DNA of 64,000 bases from Holosporaceae bacterium (lineage in GTDB: Bacteria > Pseudomonadota > Alphaproteobacteria > UBA3830), in contig JAIRZM010000001.1 of assembly GCA_031267235.1 (NCBI GenBank), positions 95,512 to 159,511 of the forward strand, written 5' to 3'. Positions 34,093 through 54,409 of this stretch are shown in pieces. A model generated the notes under the pieces. It made no database searches. It had not been told where the DNA came from and saw nothing but the letters and a program-made list of their open reading frames with translations. Made by a program: the position numbers and the translations under genes. Each line of letters opens with the position of its first letter. Within the stretch, counting starts at the first letter, position 1.

Positions 34093-34112
34093 CTAACCCT
34101 CCCATTAATTTG

Positions 34113-35171
34113 CTAGGAAACATGCTGGAACCCAAAGGTATTTCTCCAACGATCGTCGGATTCGAAATATTCTCTCAGATCAGAAATTCCGTACTTCAAG
34201 GAAGTCAGTCTTTCTACGCCGAAACCAAAGGCTAGCCCCTGATATTTATCAGCATCAACATTCCCGTGCCTCAGAACATTTGGATGCACAACCCCACAAC
34301 CACAGATTTCCAGCCACTTGTCTCCGCAACCAAACACCATCTCTCCATCTTTGATGCCATAACTCACATCCACCTCAGCAGACGGTTCAGTAAATGGAAA
34401 GAAGCTCGGCCGCAATCTTATACTAAGGTCTTTTACTGCAAAAAACTTTTTCAAAAAATTTGTGATAATCCACTTTAGGTGCGCAAACCCAACATTTTTC
34501 TCCACCACCAATCCTTCCACCTGAGTAAACATTGGAGTGTGAGTTGCATCGCTGTCGCTTCTATAAACTCTGCCAATCGAAAAAAAGCGGTGCGGCGGAG
34601 TATTTGCCAGCATGGCGTGAATCTGAATGGGAGAAGTATGAGTGCGCAGAAGATTCCGGCCCTTTTCGCTGGACGGAACGTTCACATAAAATGTATCGTG
34701 CATCGTTCTAGCCGGATGATGGTCCGGCATATTTAACGCCGTGAAATTATAGTACTCGTTCTCTAAATCTGGACCATCCGCGCAAACGAATCCAAAGGAA
34801 GACAAAATATTCGCAATCTCCTCCGAAACTTTCGTCAGCGGATGTATGCGGCCAAAGGAACGGTGACGTGCTGGCGCGGAAACATCCACAAACTCGGAGC
34901 CAAGTTTTTTATTAAGCTCCTTCAGCTCCAGTCTCGAATGTTTTAAGTCCAGTTGCCGTGTTATCTCATTCTTTACGACGTTGATTTCTGCGCCTAATTT
35001 GCGCTTTCCCTCCTTATCCAATCCTCGCAGTCTATCCATTATCTGGGTAATTCTTCCATTTTTCCCGAAGATAACGCTTCTTATGGAATCCATCTTTTTT
35101 AGATTGTCACATTTTTCGATTTCAGATAAACAGCTTGCCAACAACTTGTCCAACTCGGTCATGAATGCCAT
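34113..35171 (-). CDS. pheS: Phenylalanine--tRNA ligase alpha subunit
   Basis: Class II motifs are present (HPARTMHDTFY, FRSDSDATHTPMF, FGFGVERL). I chose the internal start MAFMTELDK; the track's 373-aa form adds an implausible leader. Confidence 0.93.
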   Translation of the reverse strand: MAFMTELDKLLASCLSEIEKCDNLKKMDSIRSVIFGKNGRITQIMDRLRGLDKEGKRKLGAEINVVKNEITRQLDLKHSRLELKELNKKLGSEFVDVSAPARHRSFGRIHPLTKVSEEIANILSSFGFVCADGPDLENEYYNFTALNMPDHHPARTMHDTFYVNVPSSEKGRNLLRTHTSPIQIHAMLANTPPHRFFSIGRVYRSDSDATHTPMFTQVEGLVVEKNVGFAHLKWIITNFLKKFFAVKDLSIRLRPSFFPFTEPSAEVDVSYGIKDGEMVFGCGDKWLEICGCGVVHPNVLRHGNVDADKYQGLAFGFGVERLTSLKYGISDLREYFESDDRWRNTFGFQHVS

Positions 35172-35399
35172 ATCCTTCACAAAAACAAATCCTGTGCGAA
35201 TATAGCAAATAACATCTCCGAAAAAAAGCCACATAACGCCAGCAATTTTTCATGTTTTGCTACACTTAAATACAAGATCCCGTCATGAATTTCTCACTGC
35301 AATTAGCGCATCGCAATGAGCATATTCCTAAGGTCACTTGGATAATTTGTAGCGAAACCTGAATATTACGCGACCCTCTACAATATCGGGACTATGCGT

Positions 35400-36122
35400 C
35401 TAGCCTAGCAAGTTTCGTCGAAAGAGCGCTTTTTTTTGCAGTAGCTTGGATAACTGTTTTAGACCATGCGGAGAGCCGATTTCGTAAAATCTTTTTTTCG
35501 CAACAAAAGAGGCCAACTCGTTTTTTTTAATTAAATCAGCGTAGGTGTCCATTAAATCATAGAATTTGTTCGACTGTAAATTCCCCAATAAGCGTTTTTG
35601 TAAAATACCAAGTCCGTAGTCTATATATTGCATCTCTGGAACCGGATGTTTTTTATCGTAGCATATAATTTTTTTATCTCTAAAGATAATATTACTGTTA
35701 TCATATAGGCATTTATTATGATAAATTGTTATGAGAGCGGAGCGTTTGCTTTGTTTATGGCATTCATATACCGCTTCATAATCGCAATCCAAGTAAGAAT
35801 CTCCGTATAAAACGAAAAACGTTTCCTCCAGCAACGGTAGAGCTTTTTTTAGCGCGCCGGCGGTACCCAATAATTCAGTGCCATCAAAAGAATACGAAAT
35901 TTCCAACCCAAATTGAGAACCATTGCCGACTTGAGCTTCTATCATTTCTCCCAAATGACCAACGCACAACACCACTTTGCTAATGCCTCGTTCCTTTAAT
36001 AGCTTCAATTGATGGAAAATAAACGGCTCCCCCGCTACCAAAAGAAGAGATTTTGGGATTTTTTCAGTAGCCGGATGCATACGCGTAGCCAACCCGCCCG
36101 CTAATATAGCTATGGATAACAT
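35400..36122 (-). CDS. Sugar-1-phosphate nucleotidyltransferase (HddC/heptose-1-P guanylyltransferase-like)
   Basis: 240 aa with ILAGGLATRM...IPKSLL at the N-terminus and GTAGAL. It is the last gene of the sugar operon. Confidence 0.8.
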   Translation of the reverse strand: MLSIAILAGGLATRMHPATEKIPKSLLLVAGEPFIFHQLKLLKERGISKVVLCVGHLGEMIEAQVGNGSQFGLEISYSFDGTELLGTAGALKKALPLLEETFFVLYGDSYLDCDYEAVYECHKQSKRSALITIYHNKCLYDNSNIIFRDKKIICYDKKHPVPEMQYIDYGLGILQKRLLGNLQSNKFYDLMDTYADLIKKNELASFVAKKRFYEIGSPHGLKQLSKLLQKKALFRRNLLG

Positions 36123-36129
36123 AAACTAT

Positions 36130-37080
36130 TTATTCCGGCTTTTGGAATACCCCTACACAACGAATACCATAGGGATATGATACTATTTTCCCGAGTATCA
36201 ATTCAATCTTAAATATCATGCGCGGAAGAAATCCTGCGGTTTTGGAGATTAAGTTTTTGGATAAACGAGATTCACAAATAGATTGTTGCCGCTCTACTGC
36301 AGCATATCTAGCTCGTAGTTTTTTCACGCACCAAAATAATGGGTAGAGAAAAAAACCTAAGTGAGAAAAATAAACCTGTTTCAATCCAGATTTGTTTAAA
36401 ATTTTCAAAATTTGCGCATCGCTGTAACGTCTGTAGTGACGCAATTGGACATCGTAAGCATCAAACAATCCTTCTCCATAGGGAACTTCAAAAACAAAAA
36501 CACCTCCCGGCTTTAGGATACGGTGTATTTCTTCTACAGCGCGTTCATGATCTTTTATGTGCTCAAGAACATTCAACGCTATGACGGCATCATAGCTATC
36601 GTTTGCTAAAGGACAATCTGTTACGTCAAAACATAATAACGGCGTTGGAATATTTTCTTTTTCTAATTCTTTCGATATTCTGTGTAGCGTTTTTGATATA
36701 ATATCTGTTCCAACAATTTGCGTACAAGGAAATGATTGCCACAGATATCTCAGCAAAATGCCACTTGAGCAGCCTATCTCTATAATTGCCCCCCCTCCAT
36801 CACTGTTTGACAAAATCGGACAATATTTCTTCAGATTTTCGATGCCGATATCAAAAGAAGCTTTGTCGATAGGATGTTGGCCATTGCTTATTTCTTCATG
36901 AAACCCTGTTAGATCGTCGTTCCATCCAGTAGGAGAAGTTGACATAGGATAGACCAAGACCCCTTCAGCATACGATTCTCCTACAAATTTTTTCCCATTC
37001 CAGACGATTTCTTCCTCTCCTTTTATAGGATTAGGAAATTTTTGTTTGTTTGTTGAATATATGCTTATGTTATTTCCCAT
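36130..37080 (-). CDS. Class I SAM-dependent methyltransferase
   Basis: 316 aa with motif I IIEIGCSSG and the post-I/II region DAVIALNVLEHI...LKPGGVFVFEVP. Confidence 0.8.
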   Translation of the reverse strand: MGNNISIYSTNKQKFPNPIKGEEEIVWNGKKFVGESYAEGVLVYPMSTSPTGWNDDLTGFHEEISNGQHPIDKASFDIGIENLKKYCPILSNSDGGGAIIEIGCSSGILLRYLWQSFPCTQIVGTDIISKTLHRISKELEKENIPTPLLCFDVTDCPLANDSYDAVIALNVLEHIKDHERAVEEIHRILKPGGVFVFEVPYGEGLFDAYDVQLRHYRRYSDAQILKILNKSGLKQVYFSHLGFFLYPLFWCVKKLRARYAAVERQQSICESRLSKNLISKTAGFLPRMIFKIELILGKIVSYPYGIRCVGVFQKPE

Positions 37081-37168
37081 TACATTGTTTTCCTTTGGAA
37101 TAGAATAACAATAAAAATGCCAATTTTCGGCTTCCTACTATAGACAACATTCTCGTACCCTTAATCCT

Positions 37169-38146
37169 CTAAAACAAAGCTCTTGCGCCACCAAAATCAA
37201 AATGAAAGCGCACTTCCTCCAGCCCGGCGGCATTCATTGCTTGACGCAATTTTGTGCTATCATGAGACAGAAACATTAGGAAGCCTCCACCACCAGCTCC
37301 TACAAGCTTTCCGCCAATCGCGCCATTTGCCATTGCTAAATCGTACCATTCATTAATTTGTGGATTACTCATATTGTCGAAACGTTTCTTTTTATGTTCC
37401 CAATGTTCATGCATCAATTGCCCAAATTGTGTTAAATCGCCATTCTCTAGTGATTCTTTACATTTATACCCTAATTTCTTTACATAGTGCAAATTGTCAA
37501 TCATATCAAGATCTTTTTGCTCTGTGCGAAAATGCTGATCTTTCAATACATCTCCTGCCTTACGGGAAAAACCAGTGAAAAACAGAAGCAATCTATCCTC
37601 AAGTTCGAAGATTGTTTGCGTTGATACCTTTAGTGACTCCGTAGAAACCGTATCATCTTTATGAAATGTAAAACACGTTAAGCCACCGTAGGATGCTATA
37701 TATTGATCCTGCTTGCCTATCGGTTCGCCGAGACGATCTATTTCTATGTGACAGGCTAACTCGGCCAGCTCCTGCTGGGAAATTAGTCGTCGTCTATGCG
37801 CATGTAAAGCTTTCAGCAGAGCGGTTGTGAAGCTCCCTGAAGAACCAAGTCCCGTTCCCGCAGGAATATCGGCCAAAGAAGTTATTTCCACCTGAGGAGT
37901 GCGCAAATTCTGCATGGAAAGGGCTTCCCTAATAATTTTATGCTGCACCTGATCAACTCTTTCCACATGTTCAAGCTGGGAATATTTCAAATATATACCC
38001 GGAGTGAAAGGTCGCATCACGGTAACGTATATGTATTTATCAATGGCTCCGGAAATGCAAAAGCCTTCATGGTAGCGATAATAGGACGGAATGTCAGTTC
38101 CACCTCCTCCAAAGGTAATGCGCAAAGGACTGCGGGCGATAATCAT
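37169..38146 (-). CDS. GHMP-family sugar kinase (D-glycero-D-manno-heptose 7-phosphate kinase HddA-like)
   Basis: 325 aa with SPLRITFGGGGTD, GHMP motif II PAGTGLGSSGSF and motif III GAGGGGFLMF. Confidence 0.8.
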   Translation of the reverse strand: MIIARSPLRITFGGGGTDIPSYYRYHEGFCISGAIDKYIYVTVMRPFTPGIYLKYSQLEHVERVDQVQHKIIREALSMQNLRTPQVEITSLADIPAGTGLGSSGSFTTALLKALHAHRRRLISQQELAELACHIEIDRLGEPIGKQDQYIASYGGLTCFTFHKDDTVSTESLKVSTQTIFELEDRLLLFFTGFSRKAGDVLKDQHFRTEQKDLDMIDNLHYVKKLGYKCKESLENGDLTQFGQLMHEHWEHKKKRFDNMSNPQINEWYDLAMANGAIGGKLVGAGGGGFLMFLSHDSTKLRQAMNAAGLEEVRFHFDFGGARALF

Positions 38147-38148
38147 GC

Positions 38149-39132
38149 TTATTTTTCCCTTTCCTGCTTATAAAGTTTGTCCACTAAGCGGAGATTGGTC
38201 AGAGCATCTTGGATATCGCCCAGTGGAGAACGATTTTCCGAGATGGCCGCCAATAATTCCTCCATTTCAAGGTCCCAGGATGTGTCCGGGAATGGATACT
38301 GCCAAATGATCGTTTGGGGCGGGCCCATTGAAGGCAACATTTTGTAAAAACTCAGCTGTTCAAGGCCATAGCTCCCGCCAAGACCGTCGATTTGCAATTT
38401 GCCTGATTTTCCATAGATTTCGAAGCAAAAAGTGTTCTTCCATTCGGTCCAGGTGGCGTGCAATTGGGCGGTTTTTCCATCGACAGTCTGCATTGTTAGA
38501 AAACAGTTGTCCTCTACGTTGCCGGACCAATAATAGCGGGGCAAGACTCCGTATACCGTCGTAAATTCTCCCAAAAACCAACGCGATAAATCTATTAGAT
38601 GTGAACCCTGGTCCAGTAGTTCGCCTCCGCCGGAAATTTCCCGATTAAATCGCCATTCTTTTTCATAATTTAAGCGACCGCCATGCCCATAACGACCCCG
38701 CACAAACATAAGCTGACCGACATCGCCTTGATTTACAAGCTCTTTAGCGCGCCAAATGGCCGGATGGAAACGATGATTGAAGCCTACTTTAACTTTTAAG
38801 CCACGTTTCGCGGCTTCCATTGCCACCGGCTCAAGTTCCTCTGCATTTCTAGCGCCTGGCTTTTCCAATAATAGATGCTTATTCGCTTTGACTGCAGTCA
38901 AAGCCAAAGAAGCTAGCTGGTCATGGGTGGCGGAAATTATTATTATTTCGGCTTCTGAGTTTATCACTGCGGCAGCATCAGCCATAGCTCTCCCGCCAAA
39001 TTCCGCACACAGTGTTTCGGCTTTTTTCATTTCAAGATCAGCTGCAGCCACCAGTTGGTTCTCATTTTTTTTAACCACGCTTGACGCTCTTTTTCGACCA
39101 ATAAGGCCGCATCCAATTATTCCAAACTTCAT
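38149..39132 (-). CDS. Gfo/Idh/MocA-family NAD(P)-dependent oxidoreductase
   Basis: Begins MKFGIIGCGLIGRKR (Rossmann fold) with EKP in LLLEKPGA. I start at 39132, which forms an ATGA overlap with the SDR stop; an alternative start is at 39144. Confidence 0.8.
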   Translation of the reverse strand: MKFGIIGCGLIGRKRASSVVKKNENQLVAAADLEMKKAETLCAEFGGRAMADAAAVINSEAEIIIISATHDQLASLALTAVKANKHLLLEKPGARNAEELEPVAMEAAKRGLKVKVGFNHRFHPAIWRAKELVNQGDVGQLMFVRGRYGHGGRLNYEKEWRFNREISGGGELLDQGSHLIDLSRWFLGEFTTVYGVLPRYYWSGNVEDNCFLTMQTVDGKTAQLHATWTEWKNTFCFEIYGKSGKLQIDGLGGSYGLEQLSFYKMLPSMGPPQTIIWQYPFPDTSWDLEMEELLAAISENRSPLGDIQDALTNLRLVDKLYKQEREK

Positions 39133-40016
39133 TTGTCTCCCCAAGTTTGTCCGCGATCCTTGCCGGTGATGCGACGCAATGTATAAAGATCGGAATCCCT
39201 CAGCTCTTCCAGATGATTAGGCCATTCCCTCCAATTGTCCCACTGGGCACTGATTAAACGCCCAGTGATTCCGTTACTGGCATCGGAAGCTAAAAAGACT
39301 GCCAACGCAGCACCAATAGATAATGGCGTCGTATTTCCTGTTAGTTTCGATTGCACCATGCGATCATGAAAATCTTTTCCAATAGTCTCAGATCCAGCGT
39401 TTAATGCTTCGTCTAGAAGGCGAGTATTCAGTAAACCAGGAGCAATGCAATTCGCATCGATGTTAAACTCTTTAAGTTCACCAGCCAAGCTCTCAATAAA
39501 TCTTACAATTGCCGTTTTGCTAATCGCATAAGCAGTCAAATATGGCATTGGATTTGTAGCGCCGCCGCCAGATATTTGAATAATTTTGCCGCATCTATTT
39601 TCCTTAAAGTGCGGCAGTAAATTCATGCACATTAAAACAGAACCATTAAGATTTATGGCCAATGCATTTTGCCATTCATGCCAGTCAACCGATTCTATTG
39701 ACCCTTTGGGCCCATAAACACCGGCGTTATTAACTAGAACGTGCATCTGATTAAATTCATCAATAATTTTTTTGCAGAAATGGTTAACTTGCTCAAAATC
39801 AGCGAGATCAATCGATATAGACATAATTTTTTGCTGTGGATTCGCCAATTGCATAAGTTCTGCAGTAGCATCGTCAAGTACAGATTTATCGCGGGCACAA
39901 ATGGCCAAGTTAGAGACGCCTGATTCGATAAAATGGCGCGCTATTTCCAGGCCAAGCCCCTGACTTGCCCCGGTTATAACGGCATTTTTGTTTTTCAAAC
40001 TAAGAGGTGTATTCAT
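39129..40016 (-). CDS. Short-chain dehydrogenase/reductase with ~40-aa C-terminal extension
   Basis: 295 aa with VITGASQGLGLEIA, NNAG and YAISK. Confidence 0.8.
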   Translation of the reverse strand: MNTPLSLKNKNAVITGASQGLGLEIARHFIESGVSNLAICARDKSVLDDATAELMQLANPQQKIMSISIDLADFEQVNHFCKKIIDEFNQMHVLVNNAGVYGPKGSIESVDWHEWQNALAINLNGSVLMCMNLLPHFKENRCGKIIQISGGGATNPMPYLTAYAISKTAIVRFIESLAGELKEFNIDANCIAPGLLNTRLLDEALNAGSETIGKDFHDRMVQSKLTGNTTPLSIGAALAVFLASDASNGITGRLISAQWDNWREWPNHLEELRDSDLYTLRRITGKDRGQTWGDK

Positions 40017-40026
40017 ATTTTAATAA

Positions 40027-41313
40027 TCACGGCTTTCCGATCGTATGATACTCAAATCCAGCAGTATTCCAATCAATTAAAAGTCTATTAATATCAATAA
40101 TTTTAAGATTGGGATTGGATTTTTTTAGTTTTTCTGGATCAATTTGCTTGCATTCATTATACGATGTAGACACAATTAACACATCAGCTCCCCTAATAGA
40201 CTCAATGGGATCCTTAAGTTTTACGACTTCTTTAGTCCCAAAACAGGAAGGCAACGTTTCCACCAGTGGATCATACACGTTTACACACGCCTTTCGTTCA
40301 AGTAGGTAGCTTACAAGATCAACCGTTGTAGAACGACGTAGTGTATTTGTGTTGGCCTTGTAGGTTAAACCCCATATAGCTATACATTTTCCCTCTAAAT
40401 CATCATACATACTGTTAATTTTGCGCCATATCCATTTTTTATGATTATTGTTACTAGAATTGATGGCGTTAATTAATTGGCTAGAAATAGTATTTTTCTT
40501 TGCAACTTCAGATAAAAAGTTAACATCCCTCGCAAGCGTTCCTCCGGAAAAAGCTCCTCCCGGCAATAAATACGCTTTCTGGCCAATGCGTTGTTCCGTC
40601 TTCATTCCGCGCGCAACTTCTGAAGCGTCTGCCCCAACTGATTCGCATATGGAGGCAATTTCGTTTGCAAAAGTAACTGACAACGCTAAAAAAGTATTAA
40701 TTGCATGCTTTGTCATTTCAGCTGATTCAATGCTCACCCATTCTAAATTCGCCGTTATTGAACTCAGTAACGACTCTAAAATATCTTTTACGCGATCGTT
40801 TTTTCTGCAGCCAACAACAATGCGATCCGGATTCAAAAAGACTTCTAGAGCTTGGCCAAGACGTAAATTTTCCGGAGAATACGCAAAATGCAAATCGAGA
40901 TTTTTGTCACGAGCAATTTTTTCGAGACATCGCACGGAACCAACAGGAAGCTGCGAAGAAACCAGCACGATCGCTCCAGCTGGCAAAAATGGCAGGGAGC
41001 GCTTCACCTGCTCGATCACATATCCAGTATCTGCCACATCATTATCGTCTACCGGAGTATCATAGGTTATCCACAATATTTCAGAACTCTCCAACGCGCG
41101 TTCTGGCGAATCCGTGAATTCAAGATGACCAGAACGCAGGCATTGCTGCATCATGCTTTCTAGACCAGGTTCAAATATAGGCGAAAGACCGCTGTTTAAT
41201 TTTTTAATAATATGCGATTTGTAGTCCAGCGCTATAACCTCATGTTTCAGAGAAGCTAAAGCAGCAGAAGTAACACAACCCAAGTGCCACAATCCCTGTA
41301 CGCATATTTTCAT
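40027..41313 (-). CDS. Nucleotide-sugar 6-dehydrogenase (UDP-glucose/GDP-mannose dehydrogenase family)
   Basis: 428 aa. MKICVQGLWHLGCV is the N-terminal NAD fold; the central helical and C-terminal UDP-binding domains are consistent in length and layout. Confidence 0.8.
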   Translation of the reverse strand: MKICVQGLWHLGCVTSAALASLKHEVIALDYKSHIIKKLNSGLSPIFEPGLESMMQQCLRSGHLEFTDSPERALESSEILWITYDTPVDDNDVADTGYVIEQVKRSLPFLPAGAIVLVSSQLPVGSVRCLEKIARDKNLDLHFAYSPENLRLGQALEVFLNPDRIVVGCRKNDRVKDILESLLSSITANLEWVSIESAEMTKHAINTFLALSVTFANEIASICESVGADASEVARGMKTEQRIGQKAYLLPGGAFSGGTLARDVNFLSEVAKKNTISSQLINAINSSNNNHKKWIWRKINSMYDDLEGKCIAIWGLTYKANTNTLRRSTTVDLVSYLLERKACVNVYDPLVETLPSCFGTKEVVKLKDPIESIRGADVLIVSTSYNECKQIDPEKLKKSNPNLKIIDINRLLIDWNTAGFEYHTIGKP

Positions 41314-41350
41314 AATTTTGTACTCTGCATAATTTACACTTCTTCTCCAA

Positions 41351-41725
41351 TTATTTTGGTCTCAGAGTAAGCCCAATGAAAAGATTCAAATTTACCGATG
41401 GTATCAATAAAGGAAACCAAACGCTATGAATTATAGAAAAATACAACTCAAGTTCGCATAATATTTCTTCTGGCATGTTGATATGCTGAGATTTTATAAA
41501 CCAATCGTAGCTTTGGTTATATAATTTTTCAAAATGTGGGCGAGCAGATAAATTTCGAGCAATACTCAGTAATTTTAGCGAATAGAGAGGGTATTTATGA
41601 TTGAAAATTTCGACGAAACTATACCATTCATTCTGCAATGCGTGTAAATGCGCATTCATAAAATCTCTGCTGATTTCTTGTTGTTCCGGAGTAAGCTCCG
41701 GAAGTTTTTGGGGCCATTTATTCAT
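41351..41725 (-). CDS. Hypothetical protein, possibly a gene remnant
   Basis: Starting at MNKWPQKLPELTPEQQ (ATG 41725) gives an 8-nt overlap with the epimerase stop. No catalytic motif, and the C-terminal third looks non-native. Confidence 0.35.
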   Translation of the reverse strand: MNKWPQKLPELTPEQQEISRDFMNAHLHALQNEWYSFVEIFNHKYPLYSLKLLSIARNLSARPHFEKLYNQSYDWFIKSQHINMPEEILCELELYFSIIHSVWFPLLIPSVNLNLFIGLTLRPK

Positions 41726-42689
41726 TGTGATCATCTCCAAATACATATCTATGGAGCAATAGCCAATCTAAAGTTTTAATTACTCCATCCAAAATATTTA
41801 TTTTTGGCTTCCAACCCAAAGATTGAATACGTCCGGTGTCCAGCCAGATAAATGGACTATCTCCTATCCAGCCGCGCTTTTCACCGGAATATTTCAATCG
41901 AGGGCTAACTTTCAAGTGCTGGGCTATGGCGTTAACGGAGTCGTTTACCTCAACATAACTATCCACTCCAAGATTAAAAATATTCACTCCATCATGGCAT
42001 TTGTCCAGGGCCAACAGCATAGCGTCTATACAATCTTGAACATATATGTAAGATTTGCGTTGATGACCATCGCCCAATATGCGCAATTCGTCTGGATTAT
42101 GCAGAAGACTGCGACAAAAATCAAAAACATGTCCATGCGTATAACGCTCTCCCAATATGGAAACGAAGCGAAATATGTATCCATTAAATCCAAAACCTTC
42201 GCAATACGCCTGGATCAGCGCTTCACAAGCCAATTTGGATGCTCCATAAAGAGAGGTCTGAACAGGAAAAGGAGCATCCTCCGGCGTTGGATGCACCAAT
42301 GGCTCGCCATAGATCGAACCCGTGGAAGAAAATACGATTTTTTTGATATCGTTAAGGCGCATGGCGTCGAGAACATTGTGAGTAACTATAGTGTTTTGCT
42401 CCAAATCCTTTCGAGGATGATCAAGACCAAAGCGAACGTCGGCATTGGCCGCAAGATGCCAAACTGTGTCTATTGGTATATTCATGGCGCTGGTAATCGC
42501 CTCCAAATCCAATAAATCCGCCTCCAGCAGCATAAAATTTGGATTAGAGAGAGCCTGCTCCAGGAATTTCTTTCTGCCAGTGGAAAAATTATCATAAACA
42601 ACGACTTTTTGATCGCAATCCAGCAGTTTATCGACCAAATTTGATCCGATAAAACCCCCGCCTCCAGTTATGAAATGAATTTTTGACAT
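41718..42689 (-). CDS. NAD-dependent nucleotide-sugar epimerase/dehydratase (extended SDR)
   Basis: 323 aa with ITGGGGFIGSNL, catalytic YGASK and GDGHQRKSYIYVQD. Confidence 0.85.
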   Translation of the reverse strand: MSKIHFITGGGGFIGSNLVDKLLDCDQKVVVYDNFSTGRKKFLEQALSNPNFMLLEADLLDLEAITSAMNIPIDTVWHLAANADVRFGLDHPRKDLEQNTIVTHNVLDAMRLNDIKKIVFSSTGSIYGEPLVHPTPEDAPFPVQTSLYGASKLACEALIQAYCEGFGFNGYIFRFVSILGERYTHGHVFDFCRSLLHNPDELRILGDGHQRKSYIYVQDCIDAMLLALDKCHDGVNIFNLGVDSYVEVNDSVNAIAQHLKVSPRLKYSGEKRGWIGDSPFIWLDTGRIQSLGWKPKINILDGVIKTLDWLLLHRYVFGDDHNE

Positions 42690-42693
42690 GCCA

Positions 42694-44736
42694 TTACTTA
42701 ATTGTTGAGGTGTCAGTATTTTTGCCGATTTTACTAGGTTCCGTTTCTTTCACAATTATTTCTTTAAACCCAATAGCAAGCATGCGAGATTCGAGGTTGC
42801 CAGGAAAAATATCCCTTGGTGCAACGGCGTCTGGCAAATCCAACAACAACTCTAGGGTGCCAGTAGATGAGATGCTCTTGTTTACAGTTGCAAATATAGT
42901 TCGCGGCTCAGAAAGCACAATTTCTCTCAGTGGACTTCTATTTAATGTTAGCAAGACACGTTGTTTATTATTTAACACATGAATTAACGGTATTTCTAGA
43001 GAGAGTTCTCTTCCTCTTAAATAAGGAGGTAATTTTATATTGATTCTCACCTGCTTACCATCTGACCAACGACCCCATTCTTCAGACTGAGATAACCCAG
43101 CAACATAAACATTAAATGGCGGATTCGTTATGTCTATAATGCCGTTTTGCGGAAAATCTAACCAACAATCAATTGCTGTAGGCATATACACATAGAAATG
43201 TGGAATTTCGTGTCTGGGCAAATCTAACACAGATAGATGATTAACATAATCTGTTCCTATATTTGGCACCAAAATGGCGATTTTATTGTCTATCTTCAAC
43301 TGGGCAATTAATGCTTTAGGGTTTGTAAACACTAAAAAATATTTTTCATCGCTCAAATTGTATGATTGAGATACATCGCTTACAAACTTAAAATCTTTAT
43401 GTACTGGCAATTCATTGCACAACAACAGAGCTGACTGAGCAATAAAATCTTTGTACACAGACAACATCCACATGTTTTGATGCCATCGAAAGGGATTGTC
43501 AACAAAACACTCAATATTTGGCGTATAAGCAACCACAGTATAGCCCGTGCTTTTCAATATAGCTGCTTTATTTATCAAAACATTAGTTTCCAAACGTTCA
43601 GATGTCCTTCCCAACATCTCCGTGTAGCGATTCCTTGCCTCCCCAAAGACATAAAAAAACGCCGAAACAACACCGCCAATCAAAATAATTTTTGTCAACC
43701 AAAAAGCTCGAATTGTCATTTTTTTCAGAAGTTCCGACTTCCAAAACATATACAAATAGACGATGACCACTGTCTGCTGCACCACGATAGCCGGCATGAT
43801 ATAATAATGCGCCTTAAGTCTCAACACAATATGCGCTCCAATAAACAAAAGAGAGCTTAATAATAATGCGTCAACAATGCGAACGTCATTTTTTCGTTTG
43901 GACACAAAGTAAGTGAATCTGATTAAAGCTATAATGCAAGATATTTTGACAATTGGATGTTGCCCAATATAAAATAAAGTTATTGTTGATACGGCTTCCC
44001 TACATCTCGCTATATTGTATGGAACGCCTCTTTGAGCACAATAGCAATAGAGAACAAAAAATAAAATCAACTGCAATATTATCATTAGGTGATAAATTTT
44101 TTCTTTTTTTACTAGATTGTCAAAGTTAATTGCTAGCGATATTACGCTAATCGGAAATATTAAAATAAAAGCTGTTTCCTTCATATAAAACGCAAGCACA
44201 GCAAATATTATTGCAAAAACATAAAAACCACTACTGTCATTTTTTTGAGCGGAGATAAAACAATAAAACCACGCTGCCCACAAAGTAATCACGGATGACT
44301 CCGCTGATTGCAATAGCGAATATGACCAAAACAAAGCCGGGGTTGACATTGGGATAAATAAGCAGGCGAGAGTACCGCTAATCTTGTTGGATAAAACCCG
44401 CACTCCTGAACAAATGCAAACAAGTAACATCGCGAGTTTGACAAAATTGTGAACCCCCATCAAGACAACCTTGATATTATCGTCAAAGTTTAGAGGCATA
44501 TATGGGCAATATTCTTGCATCATCAGTGGAGAAAAACGCCAAACACCTCCGTAACATATAGGTATTTTTTTTTGATTTAAAAAACCAAAAAAGAGTGCAC
44601 CTTCATCGCCAAAAGTAAGGCAAGCATCGTTGATTATGTAATAACCGTATTGTGCAAGCAAAATTCCCAGCAGTACCATAAGAAAAATATGGAAGTAACC
44701 TAACAGTTTTTCGCTAGCGATACGACGACCTATCAT
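42694..44736 (-). CDS. Large polytopic GT-C-like (ArnT/PMT-like) membrane glycosyltransferase with ~290-aa C-terminal soluble domain
   Basis: 680 aa with about 11 hydrophobic segments in residues 1-385. A DE pair (TFGDEGALFF) sits in the first extracytoplasmic loop, as in GT-C enzymes. The C-terminal domain contains SEEWGRWSDG and ESRMLAIGF. Confidence 0.6.
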   Translation of the reverse strand: MIGRRIASEKLLGYFHIFLMVLLGILLAQYGYYIINDACLTFGDEGALFFGFLNQKKIPICYGGVWRFSPLMMQEYCPYMPLNFDDNIKVVLMGVHNFVKLAMLLVCICSGVRVLSNKISGTLACLFIPMSTPALFWSYSLLQSAESSVITLWAAWFYCFISAQKNDSSGFYVFAIIFAVLAFYMKETAFILIFPISVISLAINFDNLVKKEKIYHLMIILQLILFFVLYCYCAQRGVPYNIARCREAVSTITLFYIGQHPIVKISCIIALIRFTYFVSKRKNDVRIVDALLLSSLLFIGAHIVLRLKAHYYIMPAIVVQQTVVIVYLYMFWKSELLKKMTIRAFWLTKIILIGGVVSAFFYVFGEARNRYTEMLGRTSERLETNVLINKAAILKSTGYTVVAYTPNIECFVDNPFRWHQNMWMLSVYKDFIAQSALLLCNELPVHKDFKFVSDVSQSYNLSDEKYFLVFTNPKALIAQLKIDNKIAILVPNIGTDYVNHLSVLDLPRHEIPHFYVYMPTAIDCWLDFPQNGIIDITNPPFNVYVAGLSQSEEWGRWSDGKQVRINIKLPPYLRGRELSLEIPLIHVLNNKQRVLLTLNRSPLREIVLSEPRTIFATVNKSISSTGTLELLLDLPDAVAPRDIFPGNLESRMLAIGFKEIIVKETEPSKIGKNTDTSTIK

Positions 44737-45440
44737 AACCTAAACCCAGCCCTGACGGCATCGTTATGGAACATTTTTACGGTTTCCAGAGAAAATTCAT
44801 CTAAATCTTTGCCTAAATTGCCCAATTTATTCAAAATATCGTTTGTTACCGTTATGATGTGGCATCCAACAGATTCTGCTTGAAATATGTTTAATATTTC
44901 GCGTGGACTTGCCCAAATAAGCTCCAGCTGCGAATAAGGGCGCAGCAACTCAACGGCAGCGCTCATTACTGGAACAGGATCTCGCCCCGTATCCGCTATG
45001 CGTCCAGCAAAAACAGAAATATATGATGACGGACTATTGGCCAGAGCTTGACTCACTTCAATCACTTGCCTTAGAGTCATAATGGCCGTTACATTCTGCT
45101 TTACCCCAGCATCAGCCAAGCGTTTTATCAGAGCACAAGAAGATTGATTTAACGTATTCGTTATGGGAATTTTCACGTACACGTTATCGCCCCACTGTTT
45201 TATGCGCAGAGCCTGCCTCTCCATTTCCGAAAAATCATCAGAAAACACCTCAAAGGAAACTGGTCGGTCCGGAATTACCTCAATTATCTCCCGAGCGAAA
45301 GCTTCATAGTCCTTTATGCCGGCTTTATTCATCAGTGTTGGATTAGTGGTAAAACCTTTTATCCATGGTTTAGCATACATCTCCAACATTCCGGCTTTAT
45401 TTGCACCATCAGCAAAAATTTTAATATCACCAATTTGCAT
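44733..45440 (-). CDS. Transaldolase-family protein (short TalC/FSA-like form)
   Basis: 235 aa with GFTTNPTL and the Schiff-base Lys context VYVKIPIT. It has an ATGA-type overlap with the downstream GT-C gene. Confidence 0.8.
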   Translation of the reverse strand: MQIGDIKIFADGANKAGMLEMYAKPWIKGFTTNPTLMNKAGIKDYEAFAREIIEVIPDRPVSFEVFSDDFSEMERQALRIKQWGDNVYVKIPITNTLNQSSCALIKRLADAGVKQNVTAIMTLRQVIEVSQALANSPSSYISVFAGRIADTGRDPVPVMSAAVELLRPYSQLELIWASPREILNIFQAESVGCHIITVTNDILNKLGNLGKDLDEFSLETVKMFHNDAVRAGFRL

Positions 45441-45471
45441 TAATCCTCCATATTCAATTGTAAATTAATAA

Positions 45472-46092
45472 TTATCTGCCCATAGATTCCCATTTCGTCG
45501 GCGCGACCTTCAATTTGGGATGAGAAACTAATAAATGCCATATTACTCCGTGGAAAGCTTCAGTGTGTGGAGTAATGTGAGCTATATTTACTGTTGGCAC
45601 GACAACCACAGCATCCCCCATTTGCGCTGTATATCCGCCATCTCGTCCCACAATTCCCATCACTGATGATCCTTTTTTCTTAGCGCAATCAATTGCTTGT
45701 ATCATATTTGGACTAATGTTACGCTCCAAGTCGCCTCCGCCTACGGATAGAATCAATAGGCCGTCTTTCTCGTTAAGACGCGAGCCCGTAAGCCAGCTGC
45801 CAAAGACAGTCTCCCAACCTTCATCGTTGGTGCGAGCGGTTAGTTCCGACACATTGTCTACCGGAGTATAGGCCTCAAATCCAGCTAATTTGCGAAAGTC
45901 ATTCACAGCATGAGAAGCCGAACCGGCAGATCCTCCAACTCCTAAGATAAAAAGCCTTCCGCCATTTTCGCGTACTCGCAACAACGCGTCAACTAATTCC
46001 TCAATAGCCGCACGATCCAAGCTGTTTATTATCTTTAAAGATTCCTTTAAAAAATCATCTACAAACATAACAACGGATACTATCCCGATCAT
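45472..46092 (-). CDS. SIS-domain sedoheptulose-7-phosphate isomerase (GmhA-like)
   Basis: 206 aa with RLFILGVGGSAGSASHAVNDF and LLILSVGGG. An alternative start is at 46068. Confidence 0.8.
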   Translation of the reverse strand: MIGIVSVVMFVDDFLKESLKIINSLDRAAIEELVDALLRVRENGGRLFILGVGGSAGSASHAVNDFRKLAGFEAYTPVDNVSELTARTNDEGWETVFGSWLTGSRLNEKDGLLILSVGGGDLERNISPNMIQAIDCAKKKGSSVMGIVGRDGGYTAQMGDAVVVVPTVNIAHITPHTEAFHGVIWHLLVSHPKLKVAPTKWESMGR

Positions 46093-46148
46093 GACATGGT
46101 TGTCAATTATATGTTATAAGGTGAGCGAATACTTGTAATAGGGCGTCG

Positions 46149-47150
46149 ATGAAAAAAAAACAAAATAAAAAAAATGCGAAAGATAGCGCCGAAGTCACAT
46201 TGGACAAAAGCTTCAAACTTTCCGTTGTGGTTCCGGTTTATAATGAAGAGAAAACTGTTAATATTTTTTTAAACAGGATACAGCCGGTGTTGAACAGAGT
46301 TACCAATAATTACGAAATAATTTTTGCCCTGGATCCGAGTACAGACCGCACCGAAGAAATAATTGAAAATGCACATCGGGTTGATAATCGCATCAAACTA
46401 CTTCGCTTTTCGCGCCGCTATGGACAACCAGCCGCCACTTGGGCTGGTCTGCATAATGCCACCGGCGATGCGGTTATCCCCATCGACTGTGATATGCAGG
46501 ATCCTCCAGAATTAATAGAGAAAATGATAGATTTATGGCACAATAAAGGCTATAAAGTTGTGATACCTCAACGACAATCCAGAGATGGCGAGAATTTTTT
46601 AAAAAAAATAATATCCTATGTGGGCTATTGGGTTATTAATAAAATTGCCTCCGTTGATATTCCCCGCAACACGGGAGACTTCCGCCTATTGGACCGCAGA
46701 GTAGTTAATGAACTGATGCGCCTACGCGAAAGTCATGGATTTCTGCGCGGATTGACTAGTCTGGTGGGGTTCAGGACTTATTTGCTGCCGTTTAACCGAC
46801 TCCCAAGAGCTGGAGGGGAAGGAAAATACAATCGCATTACCGGTAATTTAAGAATAGGATTTAACGGCATAGTGGCGTTTTCTGATTTTCTGTTAAATAT
46901 CATAACGGCACTGGGATTGATTCTTTCCACCTTATCTATATTAGGAGCTGCGTTCATGGCATGCGCCAAATTGTTTGGTTGGTGGGAATCAGTAACTGGA
47001 GTAACAACCATGCTGGTAATAGTTCTCCTGCTGTTCGGCATGCTATTTTTGGCGTTGGGAATTATGGGAGCATACGTGTCACGCATATACGATGAAGTTA
47101 AAATGCGGCCCAAATTTATTGTAGAAAAATCTCTTGGATTGGACGCATGA
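46149..47150 (+). CDS. GT2 polyprenyl-phosphate glycosyltransferase (ArnC/GtrB/DPM1-like) with C-terminal TM hairpin
   Basis: 333 aa with SVVVPVYNEE and DCDMQDPPE (DxD), plus two C-terminal TM helices. It is transcribed divergently from the 11-gene operon. Confidence 0.85.
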   Translation: MKKKQNKKNAKDSAEVTLDKSFKLSVVVPVYNEEKTVNIFLNRIQPVLNRVTNNYEIIFALDPSTDRTEEIIENAHRVDNRIKLLRFSRRYGQPAATWAGLHNATGDAVIPIDCDMQDPPELIEKMIDLWHNKGYKVVIPQRQSRDGENFLKKIISYVGYWVINKIASVDIPRNTGDFRLLDRRVVNELMRLRESHGFLRGLTSLVGFRTYLLPFNRLPRAGGEGKYNRITGNLRIGFNGIVAFSDFLLNIITALGLILSTLSILGAAFMACAKLFGWWESVTGVTTMLVIVLLLFGMLFLALGIMGAYVSRIYDEVKMRPKFIVEKSLGLDA

Positions 47151-47328: not shown

Positions 47329-49425
47329 CTAATGCTGCATTATCCTGGCCAACGACGCCAACAGCAGGATTGCTACAATGTTAGCAATTTTTATCATGGG
47401 ATTGATGGCTGGTCCTGCAGTGTCCTTGTATGGATCACCGACGGTGTCTCCGGTAACCGCAGCCTTGTGAGCTTCGGATCCTTTTCCACCGCAATTGCCA
47501 TTTTCAATGTACTTTTTTGCATTATCCCAGGCGCCACCTCCAGAAGTCATGGAAACCGCCAAAAATATGCCGGTCAAAATAGTGCCAAGAAGCATGGCAC
47601 CCACTCCCTTAAGTCCAGCTTCATGTCCTCCCAGAGAGCCAATTGCCACATACAAAACGATGGGAGCCAAAACCGGCAGCAAAGATGGCACAATCATCTC
47701 ATGAATTGCAGATTTTGTGAGTATGTCCACCGCAGTTTTGTAATCCGGCTTAGCTTTGCCTGTCATGATACCTTTTATGGACTTAAATTGACGTCTTACT
47801 TCCATTACTATGGCTCCGCCGGCTCTCCCGACTGCCATCATTCCACAAGCTCCGAACAAATACGGCAGGAGACCGCCCACAAACAATCCAACCACCACAT
47901 ATGGATCCCCCAGATCAAAACGAATCGATAAGTCAGGAAAATAATAGGCTATATCCTGGGTATAAGCGGAAAACAACACCAAGGAGGCCAAGCCCGCTGA
48001 TCCGATGGCGTAGCCTTTGGTGACGGCTTTTGTGGTATTACCAACCGCATCCAATTTATCCGTAACTACGCGTATTTTATCCGGAAGGCCTGACATCTCC
48101 GCAATTCCTCCGGCGTTATCCGTGATGGGACCATAGGCGTCCAGAGTAACGATTATGCCAGCCAAAGCAAGCATAGACGTGGCTGCAATGGCCGTTCCGT
48201 ACAATCCGGCTTGCAGATAGGAAGCCAAAATGCCAATGCAGATAATGATTACCGGAATTGCCGTAGACTCCATGGAAACGGCTAATCCCTGAATAACGTT
48301 GGTTCCGTGTCCGGTCTCAGAAGCATGAGCAATGCTTATGACAGGTCGATAGGAGTAGGACGTATAATATTCCGTAACGCAGACCAACAGGAGCGTAATG
48401 GCAAGTCCGATTATGGTGCAGGCCATTATTCCACATCCGGAGAAGGTATCAGTGCTTCCATTAATTTTAAACACCGTATTGAAATCGAACATTTTTTGGG
48501 AAACGATATATATCAACACCAGAGAGAATCCTACGGTCGCCAGCAATCCTTTGTATAGAGCATGCATCACGTTCTGTTTGCTCCCCAATTTCACGAAAAA
48601 AGTTCCCAAAATCGAACCGATAATACAGATACCGGAGATAACAAGCGGGTAAATCATCAGAAGATCCCTTGTGACGCCAGTAAAAAAGATACCCGCCAGA
48701 ACGATGGTGGCAGAAATGGTAACCACATAGGTCTCGAAAAGGTCAGCCGCCATACCAGCGCAATCTCCGACGTTGTCTCCCACATTATCTGCAATTACCG
48801 CTGGATTTCTTGGGTCATCTTCGGGAATACCAGCCTCAACTTTTCCAACCAAATCAGCTCCCACGTCTGCTCCTTTGGTGAAAATTCCTCCCCCAAGACG
48901 GGCAAATATAGAAATGAGAGAAGCTCCAAAGCTCATGGCAATTAACGATTCAGCTATAAGCCTAACGTCGCTCACAAAAGCCTTCAGATAGAAAAAATAC
49001 AGCGAAATTCCCAACAGTCCAAGACCAACCACCAGGAACCCCGTAATGGCTCCGGACTTATAGGCCACAGATAGCGCTTGATTAATACCGCCTCTAGCTG
49101 CCTCGGCGGTGCGTACATTGGCTCTCACGGAAATATTCATGCCAATGTATCCAGCAAGACCAGATAACAAAGCTCCGAGAATAAATCCTATAGCCGGATA
49201 TGCGCTCATGAACGCCCACACCACCGTCGCCATGATGGCGCCGACTACGGCAACAGTTCTATATTGCCTATTCATGTAGGCGGACGCTCCATCCTGAATT
49301 GCCGCCGCTATCTCTTGCATTCGGTCATTTCCTGGATTGAGTTTAAGCATATAATTCGCGTTTATGGCCCCGTACACCAGCGCCAAAATTCCGGATATGA
49401 TAATTGTCAATTCACAATGTTCCAT
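47329..49425 (-). CDS. hppA: Membrane-bound proton-translocating pyrophosphatase
   Basis: Has [29 protein letters not shown] and [13 protein letters not shown] start at MEHCELT (49425) rather than the track's 49467. Confidence 0.95.
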
Positions 49426-49791
49426 AAAACATCCCCACAAAAACAAGGGGCACTTTAGCATAATCAAAAGAAAATATCAAATTTGAAGTAATATTTTTCT
49501 TATCTCATTTGCAGTTAGTTGGCTTGCTTATTTTTTCGTCGAAAAATAATCAGTTGCATATAAAATGCCGTAGCTTTCGTGAACGATTTGCGCTCTCTGC
49601 GCCGAAAGCGCATTGCCAGACAAGCAGAGATAGTGAAACTCGGCAGGCTTTGGCATTTCAGGCCCTTGCCTGTCACTTTTTTGCAACAGCTCCGGAGGAA
49701 TCGCATCATTTGCGCAAAAAAAATGCAAAAACTCATGAATTAGAAGTCTATGTTGCTTTACAATACAAAATAGTGATTTCTTGAGATAAAA

Positions 49792-53791: not shown

Positions 53792-54409
53792 ATGCGTTTG
53801 ATATTAGCTTTTTCTGCAGTTTGGTTTTTCCTGCCTGGAGGTTTTGCGGAAGCGAGCGCTCCGGCAGAGAGCTCTCAAACTCAAATTAAGGAGGAAACTC
53901 CGGAGGAGCGCATTCTCAGCTTAGGAGATCAGGCCTTTAAAATAATAAGAACCACCGGGATAAAGCCGCAAGAAGTTTTTTCTAGATTTAAAGAACTATT
54001 GGATGAGTATTTTGCGATACCTTCCATTGCTACCTTCGTTCTCGGCGCCTATGGAGAAAAATTTAAAGAAAATGGTCAGAGGACTGCATTTGAAGAATAT
54101 TTGGAAAACCTTCTTGTTAGATCGTATTCGTCTAAATTCTCTGAATATATGAAGGCAAAGTTTGCGGTTTCTGGCTCTAGGCGTAGTGGGGAACAATTTC
54201 ATGTATCATCCACGATCTCTATTCCAAACAAAAAGGGCATTAAGATAATCTGGTATTTGAAAAATATAGGTGGCAAGCTAATGATTACGGATGTTAAAAT
54301 AGAAAACATGAGCATGCAAAAGACTCAAAAAGCGGATATAGTCAGCCGCATCAAGGCTGTTGGAGTCGAGAAGTTTATGCAGGAATTTAAGGAGAAATAT
54401 GGTTGCTAA
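53792..54409 (+). CDS. MlaC/Ttg2D-like periplasmic phospholipid-binding protein
   Basis: 205 aa with a signal peptide. Contains FVLGAYGEKF...F...LVRSYSSKF...ITDVKIENMSM, which fits the family pattern. Confidence 0.6.
   Translation: MRLILAFSAVWFFLPGGFAEASAPAESSQTQIKEETPEERILSLGDQAFKIIRTTGIKPQEVFSRFKELLDEYFAIPSIATFVLGAYGEKFKENGQRTAFEEYLENLLVRSYSSKFSEYMKAKFAVSGSRRSGEQFHVSSTISIPNKKGIKIIWYLKNIGGKLMITDVKIENMSMQKTQKADIVSRIKAVGVEKFMQEFKEKYGC

Follow-up and report, generated by a model that had tools for sequence, protein, structure and literature searches.

Within a 64,000-nt stretch of the genome of a Holosporaceae bacterium (assembly GCA_031267235.1, contig JAIRZM010000001.1, forward-strand positions 95,512 to 159,511; hereafter, the window), we analyzed a locus of twelve open reading frames (ORFs) at positions 35400-47150 that most likely makes a nucleotide-activated higher-carbon sugar, which would be transferred in the periplasm to an acceptor of the envelope. 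By analogy with the lincosamide antibiotic pathway, in which a sugar phosphate is extended by the transaldolase LmbR, we slightly favor a nucleoside diphosphate (NDP)-octose over an NDP-heptose as the activated sugar, with a probability of roughly 0.45 for the octose. An earlier, sequence-only reading of this DNA had described an accessory glycan locus with an NDP-heptose pathway. The gene combination is not unique to this genome: the locus is a rearranged version of an operon that is present in hundreds of species. The genes are given below in the order of transcription of the minus strand, followed by the divergent gene, together with the evidence for each assignment and the short labels used in the text.

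45472..46092, minus strand: SIS-domain sugar-phosphate isomerase (SIS; GmhA/LmbN-like), from SIS_2, the gmhA model and GmhA structures; the true start is probably near 46068
44733..45440, minus strand: transaldolase (TAL) of the TIGR02134 type, pathway-dedicated, from TIGR02134, catalytic residues and linkage
42694..44736, minus strand: putative GT-C-type membrane glycosyltransferase, 680 aa, from PMT_2 and a transmembrane (TM) scan
41718..42689, minus strand: extended-SDR NDP-sugar epimerase/dehydratase (EPI; LmbM role), from Pfam Epimerase (E 9.7e-47)
41351..41725, minus strand: remnant of a class I S-adenosylmethionine (SAM) methyltransferase (MT), a 124/131-aa ORF, from an in-frame internal deletion
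40027..41313, minus strand: Cys-less member of the UDP-glucose/GDP-mannose dehydrogenase family (DH; LmbL role), from three UDPG_MGDP_dh domains
39129..40016, minus strand: classical SDR oxidoreductase with a C-terminal extension (SDR), from adh_short (E 1.3e-45)
38149..39132, minus strand: Gfo/Idh/MocA oxidoreductase (GFO; LmbZ role), from the GFO_IDH_MocA N- and C-terminal domains
37169..38146, minus strand: GHMP anomeric sugar-phosphate kinase (HddA/LmbP-like), from the HddA model and HddA/WcbL structures
36130..37080, minus strand: intact class I SAM methyltransferase with an N-terminal extension of ~90 residues, from Methyltransf_11 (E 1.6e-22)
35400..36122, minus strand: sugar-1-phosphate nucleotidyltransferase (NTase; HddC/LmbO/MurU-like), from NTP_transferase (E 1.9e-19)
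46149..47150, plus strand: divergent GtrB-type polyprenyl-phosphate glycosyltransferase (GT2), from the match to GtrB 5ekp

The distribution of the operon was assessed with a kinase-alignment scan of one genome per species, which confirmed kinase orthologs in the genomes of at least 588 species spanning about 10 phyla. The best 80 of these relatives, with 64-83% identity, come from Alpha-, Beta-, Gamma-, and "Delta"-proteobacteria, Acidobacteriota, Chloroflexota, Chlorobi, Planctomycetota, Leptospiraceae, Cyanobacteria, and Bacteroidota, which makes the operon one of the better conserved and more widely transferred glycan modules; among the cultured carriers are Legionella massiliensis, Rhizobium tubonense, Methyloglobulus morosus, and Rhodoblastus sphagnicola. 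Linkage was counted in the 41 loci, among these 80, that have full 10-kb flanks around the kinase gene. Within 10 kb of the kinase, TAL was found in all 41 loci, SIS and NTase in 39 each, EPI in 38, a HAD phosphatase in 33-36 (the range reflects the detection method), GFO in 31, SDR in 29, DH in 18, and MT in 10. The commonest order is EPI-DH-SDR-GFO-kinase-NTase-SIS-HAD-TAL, and the string kinase-NTase-SIS-HAD-TAL is contiguous in 31/41 loci. The window holds four of the five members of the TAL/SIS/kinase/HAD/NTase set, and EPI, DH, and GFO are all present and adjacent. The missing member is the HAD; the sequence-only reading had already noted the lack of a GmhB-type phosphatase at the locus, and none is encoded anywhere in the 64 kb, as judged by tblastn with the cluster-linked HAD proteins of relatives.

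Individual relatives illustrate how the operon varies. The locus of an uncultured deltaproteobacterium (L001), HAD-TAL-membrane protein-EPI-MT-DH-SDR-GFO-kinase-NTase-GtrA-GT2, follows the same order as the window, whereas a common metagenomic type (L002) reads GT2-EPI-acyltransferase-SDR-GFO-kinase-NTase-MT-GtrA::MT-SIS-HAD-TAL-polyprenyl synthase-DUF7024 protein, and a third (L090) reads membrane protein-GT2-GtrA-EPI-SDR-GFO-kinase-NTase-SIS-HAD-TAL. A plasmid collection also yielded orthologs on replicons of Rhizobium jaguaris and Lawsonia intracellularis (plasmid 3), both holding the SIS-HAD-TAL-kinase core. In the latter, an obligate intracellular pig pathogen, the module lies in a polysaccharide locus at 5334-13685 of the 194-kb plasmid (NC_008014.1), in the order SIS-HAD-TAL-LPG_synthase_TM protein-DH-SDR-GFO-kinase-NTase, and its kinase, 67% identical to that of the window, is annotated as a galactokinase. 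Public annotation generally splits and hides the unit, under the names galactokinase, pentose-phosphate-shunt transaldolase, nucleotide-sugar dehydrogenase, and heptose bisphosphate phosphatase.

Three further observations concern relatives of the locus. Just upstream of a 121-aa SIS remnant, L001 carries an insertion sequence element (7887-9453; rve transposase and HTH_Tnp_1), so that the isomerase gene appears to be disrupted in an otherwise complete operon. A gene for a UbiA-family prenyltransferase adjoins the module in L088 (1835-3259), L020, L032, L069, and L080; together with the polyprenyl synthase of L002, these neighbors hint that some versions have a lipid carrier of their own or yield a product linked to lipid. 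Finally, in L089 a SIS-TAL pair (9385-10726) stands alone, with neither a kinase nor an NTase gene in the 10 kb around it, which suggests that SIS and TAL form a functional couple.

Central to the interpretation of the locus is the transaldolase. This 235-aa protein passes the TIGR02134 cut-off (323 bits vs 282) and, in comparison with the T. acidophilum transaldolase 3s0c and with 1vpx, keeps the Asp, Glu, Schiff-base Lys, and Phe residues. FSA-type aldolases carry Gln and Tyr where this enzyme has Glu and Phe, which rules out an aldolase of that type; judged by its catalytic residues, the enzyme is a true transaldolase. Relatives at about 70% identity or more number in the thousands and come from unrelated taxa. 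Its acceptor would most likely be ribose-5-phosphate, giving octulose-8-phosphate, by analogy with LmbR.

The other core enzymes belong to the GmhA/HddA/HddC superfamilies and score far below the curated equivalog cut-offs. The isomerase matches Pfam SIS_2 (E 8.7e-10) and GmhA structures in the PDB (E ~1e-12) and scores 56.4 bits on the GmhA equivalog model TIGR00441, far below the cut-off of 209. SIS proteins of related clusters that have no transaldolase reach 92-108 bits on the same model; thus, the isomerase of the window is unusually divergent from GmhA. For the kinase, HddA is the best curated family (NF049969, E 2e-49), with 168.8 bits against a cut-off of 600, comparable to the 140-152 bits of the kinases from the transaldolase-less clusters, and the best PDB matches are HddA/WcbL (E 1e-40 to 1e-47). 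The nucleotidyltransferase scores 86 bits on the HddC model NF049965 (cut-off 300) and 126 bits, higher but likewise below cut-off, on the MurU model; its PDB match is HddC 5xhw (E 1e-18). The HAD proteins of relatives score 98 on PRK08942 (cut-off 178); among equivalogs, heptose-1,7-bisphosphate phosphatase is their best match, and they are publicly annotated as heptose bisphosphate phosphatases.

To our knowledge, the lincosamide pathway is the only characterized sugar-nucleotide pathway that starts with a dedicated transaldolase. According to the published accounts (PMC4351081, PMC5854111), LmbR joins a C3 unit from fructose-6-phosphate or sedoheptulose-7-phosphate to ribose-5-phosphate, yielding octulose-8-phosphate, which is then processed by the isomerase LmbN, the kinase LmbP, the phosphatase LmbK, and the guanylyltransferase LmbO; the GDP-octose is converted by the epimerase LmbM, the dehydrogenase-family protein LmbL, the NAD(P)-dependent oxidoreductase LmbZ/CcbZ, and the transaminase LmbS (PMC4351081, PMC5854111, and PMC12945683). 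Of these nine sugar families, eight have a counterpart in the operon (LmbR/N/P/K/O/M/L/Z, with the HAD present in relatives), matched at the level of enzyme family. The pathways differ in that LmbS, the C6 aminotransferase that gives an amino-octose, has no counterpart among the twelve ORFs, which include a classical SDR and methyltransferases instead; the SDR could take the place of the aminotransferase, reducing a keto intermediate rather than aminating it. They differ further in the destination of the product, which here would go to a GtrB/GT-C envelope arm and not to an antibiotic, and in the transaldolase itself, which is 235 aa long and of the TIGR02134 type, compared with 222 aa for CcbR.

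The preferred alternative to the octose is an NDP-heptose (GDP-D-glycero-alpha-D-manno-heptose or an isomer), tailored and delivered in the same way, with the transaldolase merely boosting or securing the supply of sedoheptulose-7-phosphate; we regard this as a real, if somewhat doubtful, possibility. The sequence-only reading had proposed such a route, and it was right in that the pathway is of the GmhA/HddA/HddC superfamily type, but none of the three proteins comes near its equivalog cut-off, and neither does the HAD of the relatives. The heptose can claim the best structural and model matches given above, the curation of TIGR02134 as a true pentose-phosphate transaldolase, and the fact that heptoses are well-known envelope sugars; moreover, where the pentose-phosphate pathway of an endosymbiont is reduced, a separate route to sedoheptulose-7-phosphate could be needed. 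The operon shares with the GDP-D-glycero-alpha-D-manno-heptose pathway of capsule, S-layer, and O-antigen loci (GmhA, HddA, GmhB, HddC) the same four superfamilies and the same logic, in which the sugar phosphate is isomerized, phosphorylated at C1, relieved of its terminal phosphate, and nucleotidylated, and differs from it in the low model scores, in the set of tailoring enzymes, and in the obligatory linkage of a transaldolase, which is absent from the heptose-type clusters examined.

It is this linkage that makes the supply of sedoheptulose-7-phosphate by the transaldolase the weakest step of the earlier reading. TAL is present in 41/41 orthologous loci, including those of free-living Proteobacteria, Acidobacteriota, and Chloroflexota, vs none of seven heptose-type clusters with more distant kinases (34-44% identical), from Streptomyces sp. 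SAT1, Streptomyces NBC_00868, Rhizobium etli, Azospirillum, Methylovirgula, Lawsonia plasmid 1, and Jannaschia, one of which is fed with sedoheptulose-7-phosphate. Free-living bacteria ordinarily make this compound with transketolase. Because the transaldolase is strictly kept and many carriers are free-living, it is unlikely just to top up the sedoheptulose-7-phosphate pool. Furthermore, we know of no characterized heptose-modification locus that, like the lincosamide octose pathway, includes a Gfo/Idh/MocA enzyme or a Cys-less homolog of UDP-glucose dehydrogenase (UGDH). The hygromycin-B-type heptose module resembles the operon in its SIS, GHMP kinase, HAD, and nucleotidyltransferase, with a kinase 34% identical to that of the window, and differs in the lack of a transaldolase, in an SIS that is nearer to GmhA (108 vs 56 bits), and in its secondary-metabolite context; HygP-type isomerases use sedoheptulose-7-phosphate straight from central metabolism (PMC10948575).

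Several points weigh against the octose and the wider scheme built on it. For the kinase, SIS, NTase, and HAD alike, heptose-pathway enzymes provide the closest structures and curated models. We know of no report of unbranched octoses in the envelope glycans of bacteria, and our literature searches found none. The nearest relative of CcbR is a Cellulomonas "putative transaldolase," according to PMC4351081, and CcbR probably belongs to a different transaldolase subfamily from TIGR02134. The same paper gives identities of only 33-49% between Ccb proteins and their nearest non-lincosamide relatives, which is no closer than the window kinase is to true heptose kinases. The resemblance to the Lmb pathway may therefore be convergent, an analogy rather than the result of descent. 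In addition, the fold of the GT-C could not be modeled (AlphaFold pLDDT 36) and the protein has no sequence match in the PDB. The missing phosphatase and GtrA, along with the methyltransferase remnant, would also be compatible with some decay of the operon in this genome. The octose is favored only slightly because the match to the Lmb proteins is one of enzyme family, the Ccb identities are low, and CcbR is probably of another subfamily. As for the phosphatase, the nearest non-lincosamide relative of CcbK is Solibacter usitatus ABJ81431 (PMC4351081); with the HAD of a Ca. Solibacter metagenome-assembled genome (MAG) as query, S. usitatus was not among the 120 matches listed.

Some of the transaldolase-less clusters are of interest in their own right. 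The hygromycin-B-type cluster of Streptomyces sp. SAT1 (L091) occupies the last 16 kb of an 840-kb linear plasmid (NZ_CP016083.1) and encodes SIS, GHMP kinase, HAD, a GalT-like transferase, aminotransferases, and a radical SAM protein, with APH(7'')-Ia (94.9% identity) adjoining. The cluster on Rhizobium etli pRetNXC12b (L094, 1265-12734), which has a kinase 44% identical to that of the window and is also found on ~50 other Rhizobium plasmids, comprises SIS, GT2, a 656-aa hypothetical protein, an LPG_synthase_TM protein, an epimerase, and a 650-aa HAD-IIIA fusion, and clusters of this type are conserved on many plasmids of R. leguminosarum, R. etli, and R. phaseoli. On Azospirillum sp. B510 pAB510f (L095, 6968-10038), a kinase homolog (39%) lies beside a split transketolase, an aldo/keto reductase, and a TylF-type O-methyltransferase, which may represent a different chain-extension logic for an unusual sugar.

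Putting together family membership, synteny, and analogy, we propose the following scheme for the preferred product, the NDP-octose. The dedicated transaldolase would move a C3 dihydroxyacetone unit from fructose-6-phosphate or sedoheptulose-7-phosphate onto an aldose phosphate, the SIS isomerase would turn the resulting ketose phosphate into an aldose phosphate, and the GHMP kinase would phosphorylate C1. The terminal phosphate would then be taken off by a phosphatase, which is encoded in the operon in most genomes and not in the three Holosporaceae lineages examined, where it would have to come from elsewhere or the step be skipped. After formation of the NDP-sugar by the nucleotidyltransferase, EPI, the GFO-SDR pair, the Cys-less DH homolog, and the remaining methyltransferase would tailor it, the likely chemistry being epimerization, oxidation/reduction or deoxygenation, and O-methylation. 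Finally, the GtrB-like GT2 would load the sugar onto polyprenyl phosphate and, after flipping, the GT-C would pass it to the acceptor.

As the sequence-only reading had it, sugar tailoring enzymes accompany the nucleotide-sugar pathway. EPI, SDR, and GFO are 68%, 65%, and 68% identical, respectively, to their L001 orthologs, and SIS is 65% identical to its L002 ortholog from residue 3 onward (tblastn); wherever SDR occurs in the 41 loci, it lies directly before the GFO gene. The intact methyltransferase (36130..37080) is 47% identical to that of L002. By contrast with intact methyltransferases of 237-247 aa, the small ORF at 41351-41725, which matches residues 1-77 and 162-228 of the L001 methyltransferase in one frame (tblastn), has undergone a clean in-frame loss of ~113 residues that included the SAM-binding motif LEIGAGIG; it has no Pfam match, and the remnant is probably inactive. 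The idea that this 131-aa ORF encodes a small flippase of the GtrA or ArnE/F type was rejected, given that the ORF has no TM segment and is a deleted methyltransferase.

The dehydrogenase homolog matches all three family domains (PF03721, PF00984, and PF03720) and scores 310 bits on TIGR03026. Alignment to the solved UDP-glucose dehydrogenases 3gg2, 4a7p, and 2y0e showed that the catalytic motif GGSCFPKD is changed to SGGTLARD, with Thr in place of the Cys and Arg in place of the Lys. The sequence GGTLARD is present in 36/36 copies, namely, that of the window and 35 cluster-linked copies in related loci, while a second, unlinked paralog in one locus retains the Cys. In the UGDH family, this Cys forms the thiohemiacetal and the thioester that are needed for the second oxidation. 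Because the nucleophilic Cys is replaced by Thr, DH cannot be a classical uronic-acid-forming enzyme, which overturns its earlier description as a nucleotide-sugar 6-dehydrogenase; the loss of the Cys fits a 2-electron tailoring role. DH is an optional component and, in the conserved operon order, sits between EPI and SDR.

The delivery arm comprises the GT2 and the GT-C. The GT2 matches GtrB of Synechocystis (5ekp) over its full length (residues 21-332, E 6.5e-67), followed at a distance by ArnC structures (E ~1e-35) and then dolichol-P-mannose synthase; on curated models it remains below cut-off for both PgfS (219 bits) and ArnC (145 bits vs 529). As in the GtrB class, it has two C-terminal TM helices (TM scan), and it is 75% identical to the GT2 of L001. 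The GT-C exceeds the PMT_2 gathering threshold (31.9 bits vs 26.1) and shows a weak match to DUF7024. It is predicted by a TM scan to contain ~10-11 TM helices within residues 11-367, followed by a soluble C-terminal region of ~310 residues, and shares with its sole close relative a TFxDE loop after TM1 and the C-terminal motif SQxExWGRWSD (DUF7024-like). An exhaustive profile search among 1.84 billion sequences yielded 238 representatives at E<=1e-3 and 11 at E<=1e-30, and an indexed search returned two sequences only. On these comparisons, the GT-C is a fast-evolving protein; it occupies the same position as the large membrane proteins of L001 and of two Holosporaceae loci (L004 and L006).

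Taken together, the GT2 and the GT-C very probably constitute a Gtr-type periplasmic delivery arm, so that the locus combines a sugar-nucleotide module with a Gtr-type delivery architecture. In agreement with the sequence-only reading, the pathway is predicted to be coupled to the polyprenyl-phosphate GT2 and the GT-C, not to Wzx/Wzy, and Wzx, Wzy, Wzz, WaaL, and an ABC exporter are absent from the twelve ORFs and their immediate flanks, to which this check was confined. In the Gtr system (GtrA flippase, GtrB, and a type-specific GT-C) and the analogous ArnC/ArnEF/ArnT arm, there is likewise a GtrB-like GT2, and the putative polytopic GT-C of the window, with its DE loop, may correspond to the GT-C component; unlike in those systems, the donor sugar here would come from a dedicated nine-gene operon and not from UDP-glucose, the Holosporaceae copies lack GtrA, and the GT-C has no sequence relative of solved structure and few relatives anywhere. 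GtrA was detected in 13/41 fully flanked loci, adjoining GT2 in L001 and L090 and within the same cluster in L002; tblastn with cluster-linked GtrA proteins of relatives found none in the 64-kb window. Orthologs of GtrB (E<1e-130) occur in ~20 of the 80 related loci, and many of the others have ordinary GT2/GT4, Wzy-like, or ABC genes in place of a Gtr-type arm; thus, the sugar module is portable between delivery systems. The window encodes an LpxI-LpxB fusion, MlaC, and BamD, which implies that the bacterium has an outer membrane with lipid A, and lipopolysaccharide (LPS) or lipid A is therefore the candidate acceptor.

Two further Holosporaceae lineages (L004/L005 and L006-L008) have the operon in a shared, rearranged layout, with GT2 divergent from SIS-TAL-GT-C-EPI-MT-(DH or MT)-SDR-GFO-kinase-NTase; a HAD between SIS and TAL is lacking in both, as is GtrA. 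The L004 locus lies between dnaKJ and mutS, whereas that of the window lies between pheS and hppA. Eleven of the twelve window genes are intact and 44-84% identical to the other Holosporaceae copies, and a Holosporaceae MAG encodes proteins 100% identical to the transaldolase and to the GT-C. Since the operon has been retained without HAD and GtrA across this range of divergence, their loss is a lineage feature and not fresh damage. The comparison bears on the second alternative, namely, that in a reductive endosymbiont genome the locus persists only as a decaying remnant that no longer makes a glycan, with the loss of phosphatase, flippase, and one methyltransferase marking early erosion. Such decay would account for the lack of HAD and GtrA in the window, for the methyltransferase remnant, and for the GC content of the locus, essentially the lowest in the window, but we consider it unlikely: the other eleven ORFs are full length, free of frameshifts, and tightly packed with translational-coupling overlaps, intact genes in different neighborhoods in the other two lineages indicate long-term retention, and 5-8/41 loci in other phyla also have no linked HAD. 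The operon copy of the window is apparently still working.

The least plausible alternative is an Arn-like route, in which DH would make UDP-glucuronic acid, the extended SDR would decarboxylate or epimerize it, ArnC/ArnT-like enzymes would transfer the product to lipid A, and TAL, SIS, kinase, and NTase would form a separate pathway. The ArnC matches of the GT2, the PMT_2 match of the GT-C (a family that also includes ArnT), and one source that names the GT-C a 4-amino-4-deoxy-L-arabinose transferase speak for this route, but we reject it because the catalytic Cys is absent from all 36 DH copies, no ArnB aminotransferase, ArnA formyltransferase, or ArnD deformylase is found among the profile matches of the locus, the GT2 is much nearer to GtrB than to ArnC, and DH is embedded in the kinase-module operon and dispensable in 23/41 loci.

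We found no description of the operon as a unit in the literature searched, although its parts, a sugar-nucleotide pathway and Gtr-type periplasmic glycosylation, are familiar. Full-text searches returned no paper on the operon, DUF7024, octose in LPS, or the glycans of Lawsonia or Holosporaceae, and no octose-8-phosphate chemistry outside lincomycin. The sequence-only reading did not recognize the enzyme combination as a characterized pathway, and the publications searched are in keeping with this. We tentatively propose, at somewhat less than even odds, that in primary metabolism the operon is the counterpart of the lincomycin sugar pathway, and possibly its evolutionary origin, making an NDP-octose (perhaps 8-deoxy or O-methyl) for the envelopes of hundreds of species in ~10 phyla, with a conserved class of Cys-less UGDH-like tailoring enzymes and, in Holosporaceae, a lineage-specific GT-C that puts the sugar on LPS or a surface protein. 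If so, an unrecognized class of eight-carbon sugars would be added to bacterial cell-surface glycans. Should the transaldolase be LmbR-like, many bacteria, among them the intracellular Holosporaceae, Lawsonia intracellularis, and Legionella massiliensis, would bear a surface eight-carbon sugar that glycan chemistry has overlooked, and the lincomycin sugar pathway would gain an obvious relative in primary metabolism. Even if the sugar is a heptose, the obligatory transaldolase and the invariant Cys-to-Thr change in the dehydrogenase homolog need explaining.

The layout of the locus largely conforms to that given in the sequence-only reading. An ORF scan recovered the same twelve ORFs, eleven on the minus strand (35400-46092) and the divergent GT2 gene on the plus strand, and the family assignments were upheld by Pfam and NCBIfam profiles. 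The overlaps between GT-C and TAL (44733/44736) and between SDR and GFO (39129/39132) are of the ATGA type, and that between EPI and the small ORF (41718/41725) is 8 nt long. The internal starts chosen earlier are backed by homology: the small ORF aligns from 41725 and GFO from 39132, the ORF of the latter running mechanically up to a TTG at 39144. The reported tight packing, with gaps of 10 nt or less, applies to most junctions but not to those between MT and kinase (88 nt), DH and the small ORF (37 nt), and TAL and SIS (31 nt). Promoter and terminator scans of the locus gave results no better than those for shuffled sequences.

Horizontal acquisition, suggested earlier from the AT-richness of the block, is consistent with both its composition and the different chromosomal neighborhoods in related genomes. 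The GC content is 40.6%, compared with 43.4% in the remaining window, a real but small shift that is close to the lowest among sliding windows of the same size (minimum 40.5%, starting at 35001). The locus is flanked by pheS/pheT (31717-35234) and a Na+-translocating pyrophosphatase gene (47329-49467), and no tRNA gene, integrase gene, or flanking direct repeat was found at its borders, so there is no sign of a recent genomic island. We infer a horizontal origin from the identity across phyla, the different insertion contexts, and the dip in GC content; the borders lend no support to it.

The only two tRNA genes of the window are Leu-TAA (16257-16342, minus strand) and Arg-CCG (17326-17402, plus strand); at a distance of ~18 kb, they have no association with the locus. 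The genes for MlaC and BamD lie at 53792-54409 and 54863-55603, respectively. The LpxI-LpxB fusion is a single 659-aa ORF (27941-29920, minus strand), in which the N- and C-terminal domains of LpxI are fused to LpxB, thus combining two steps of lipid A synthesis.

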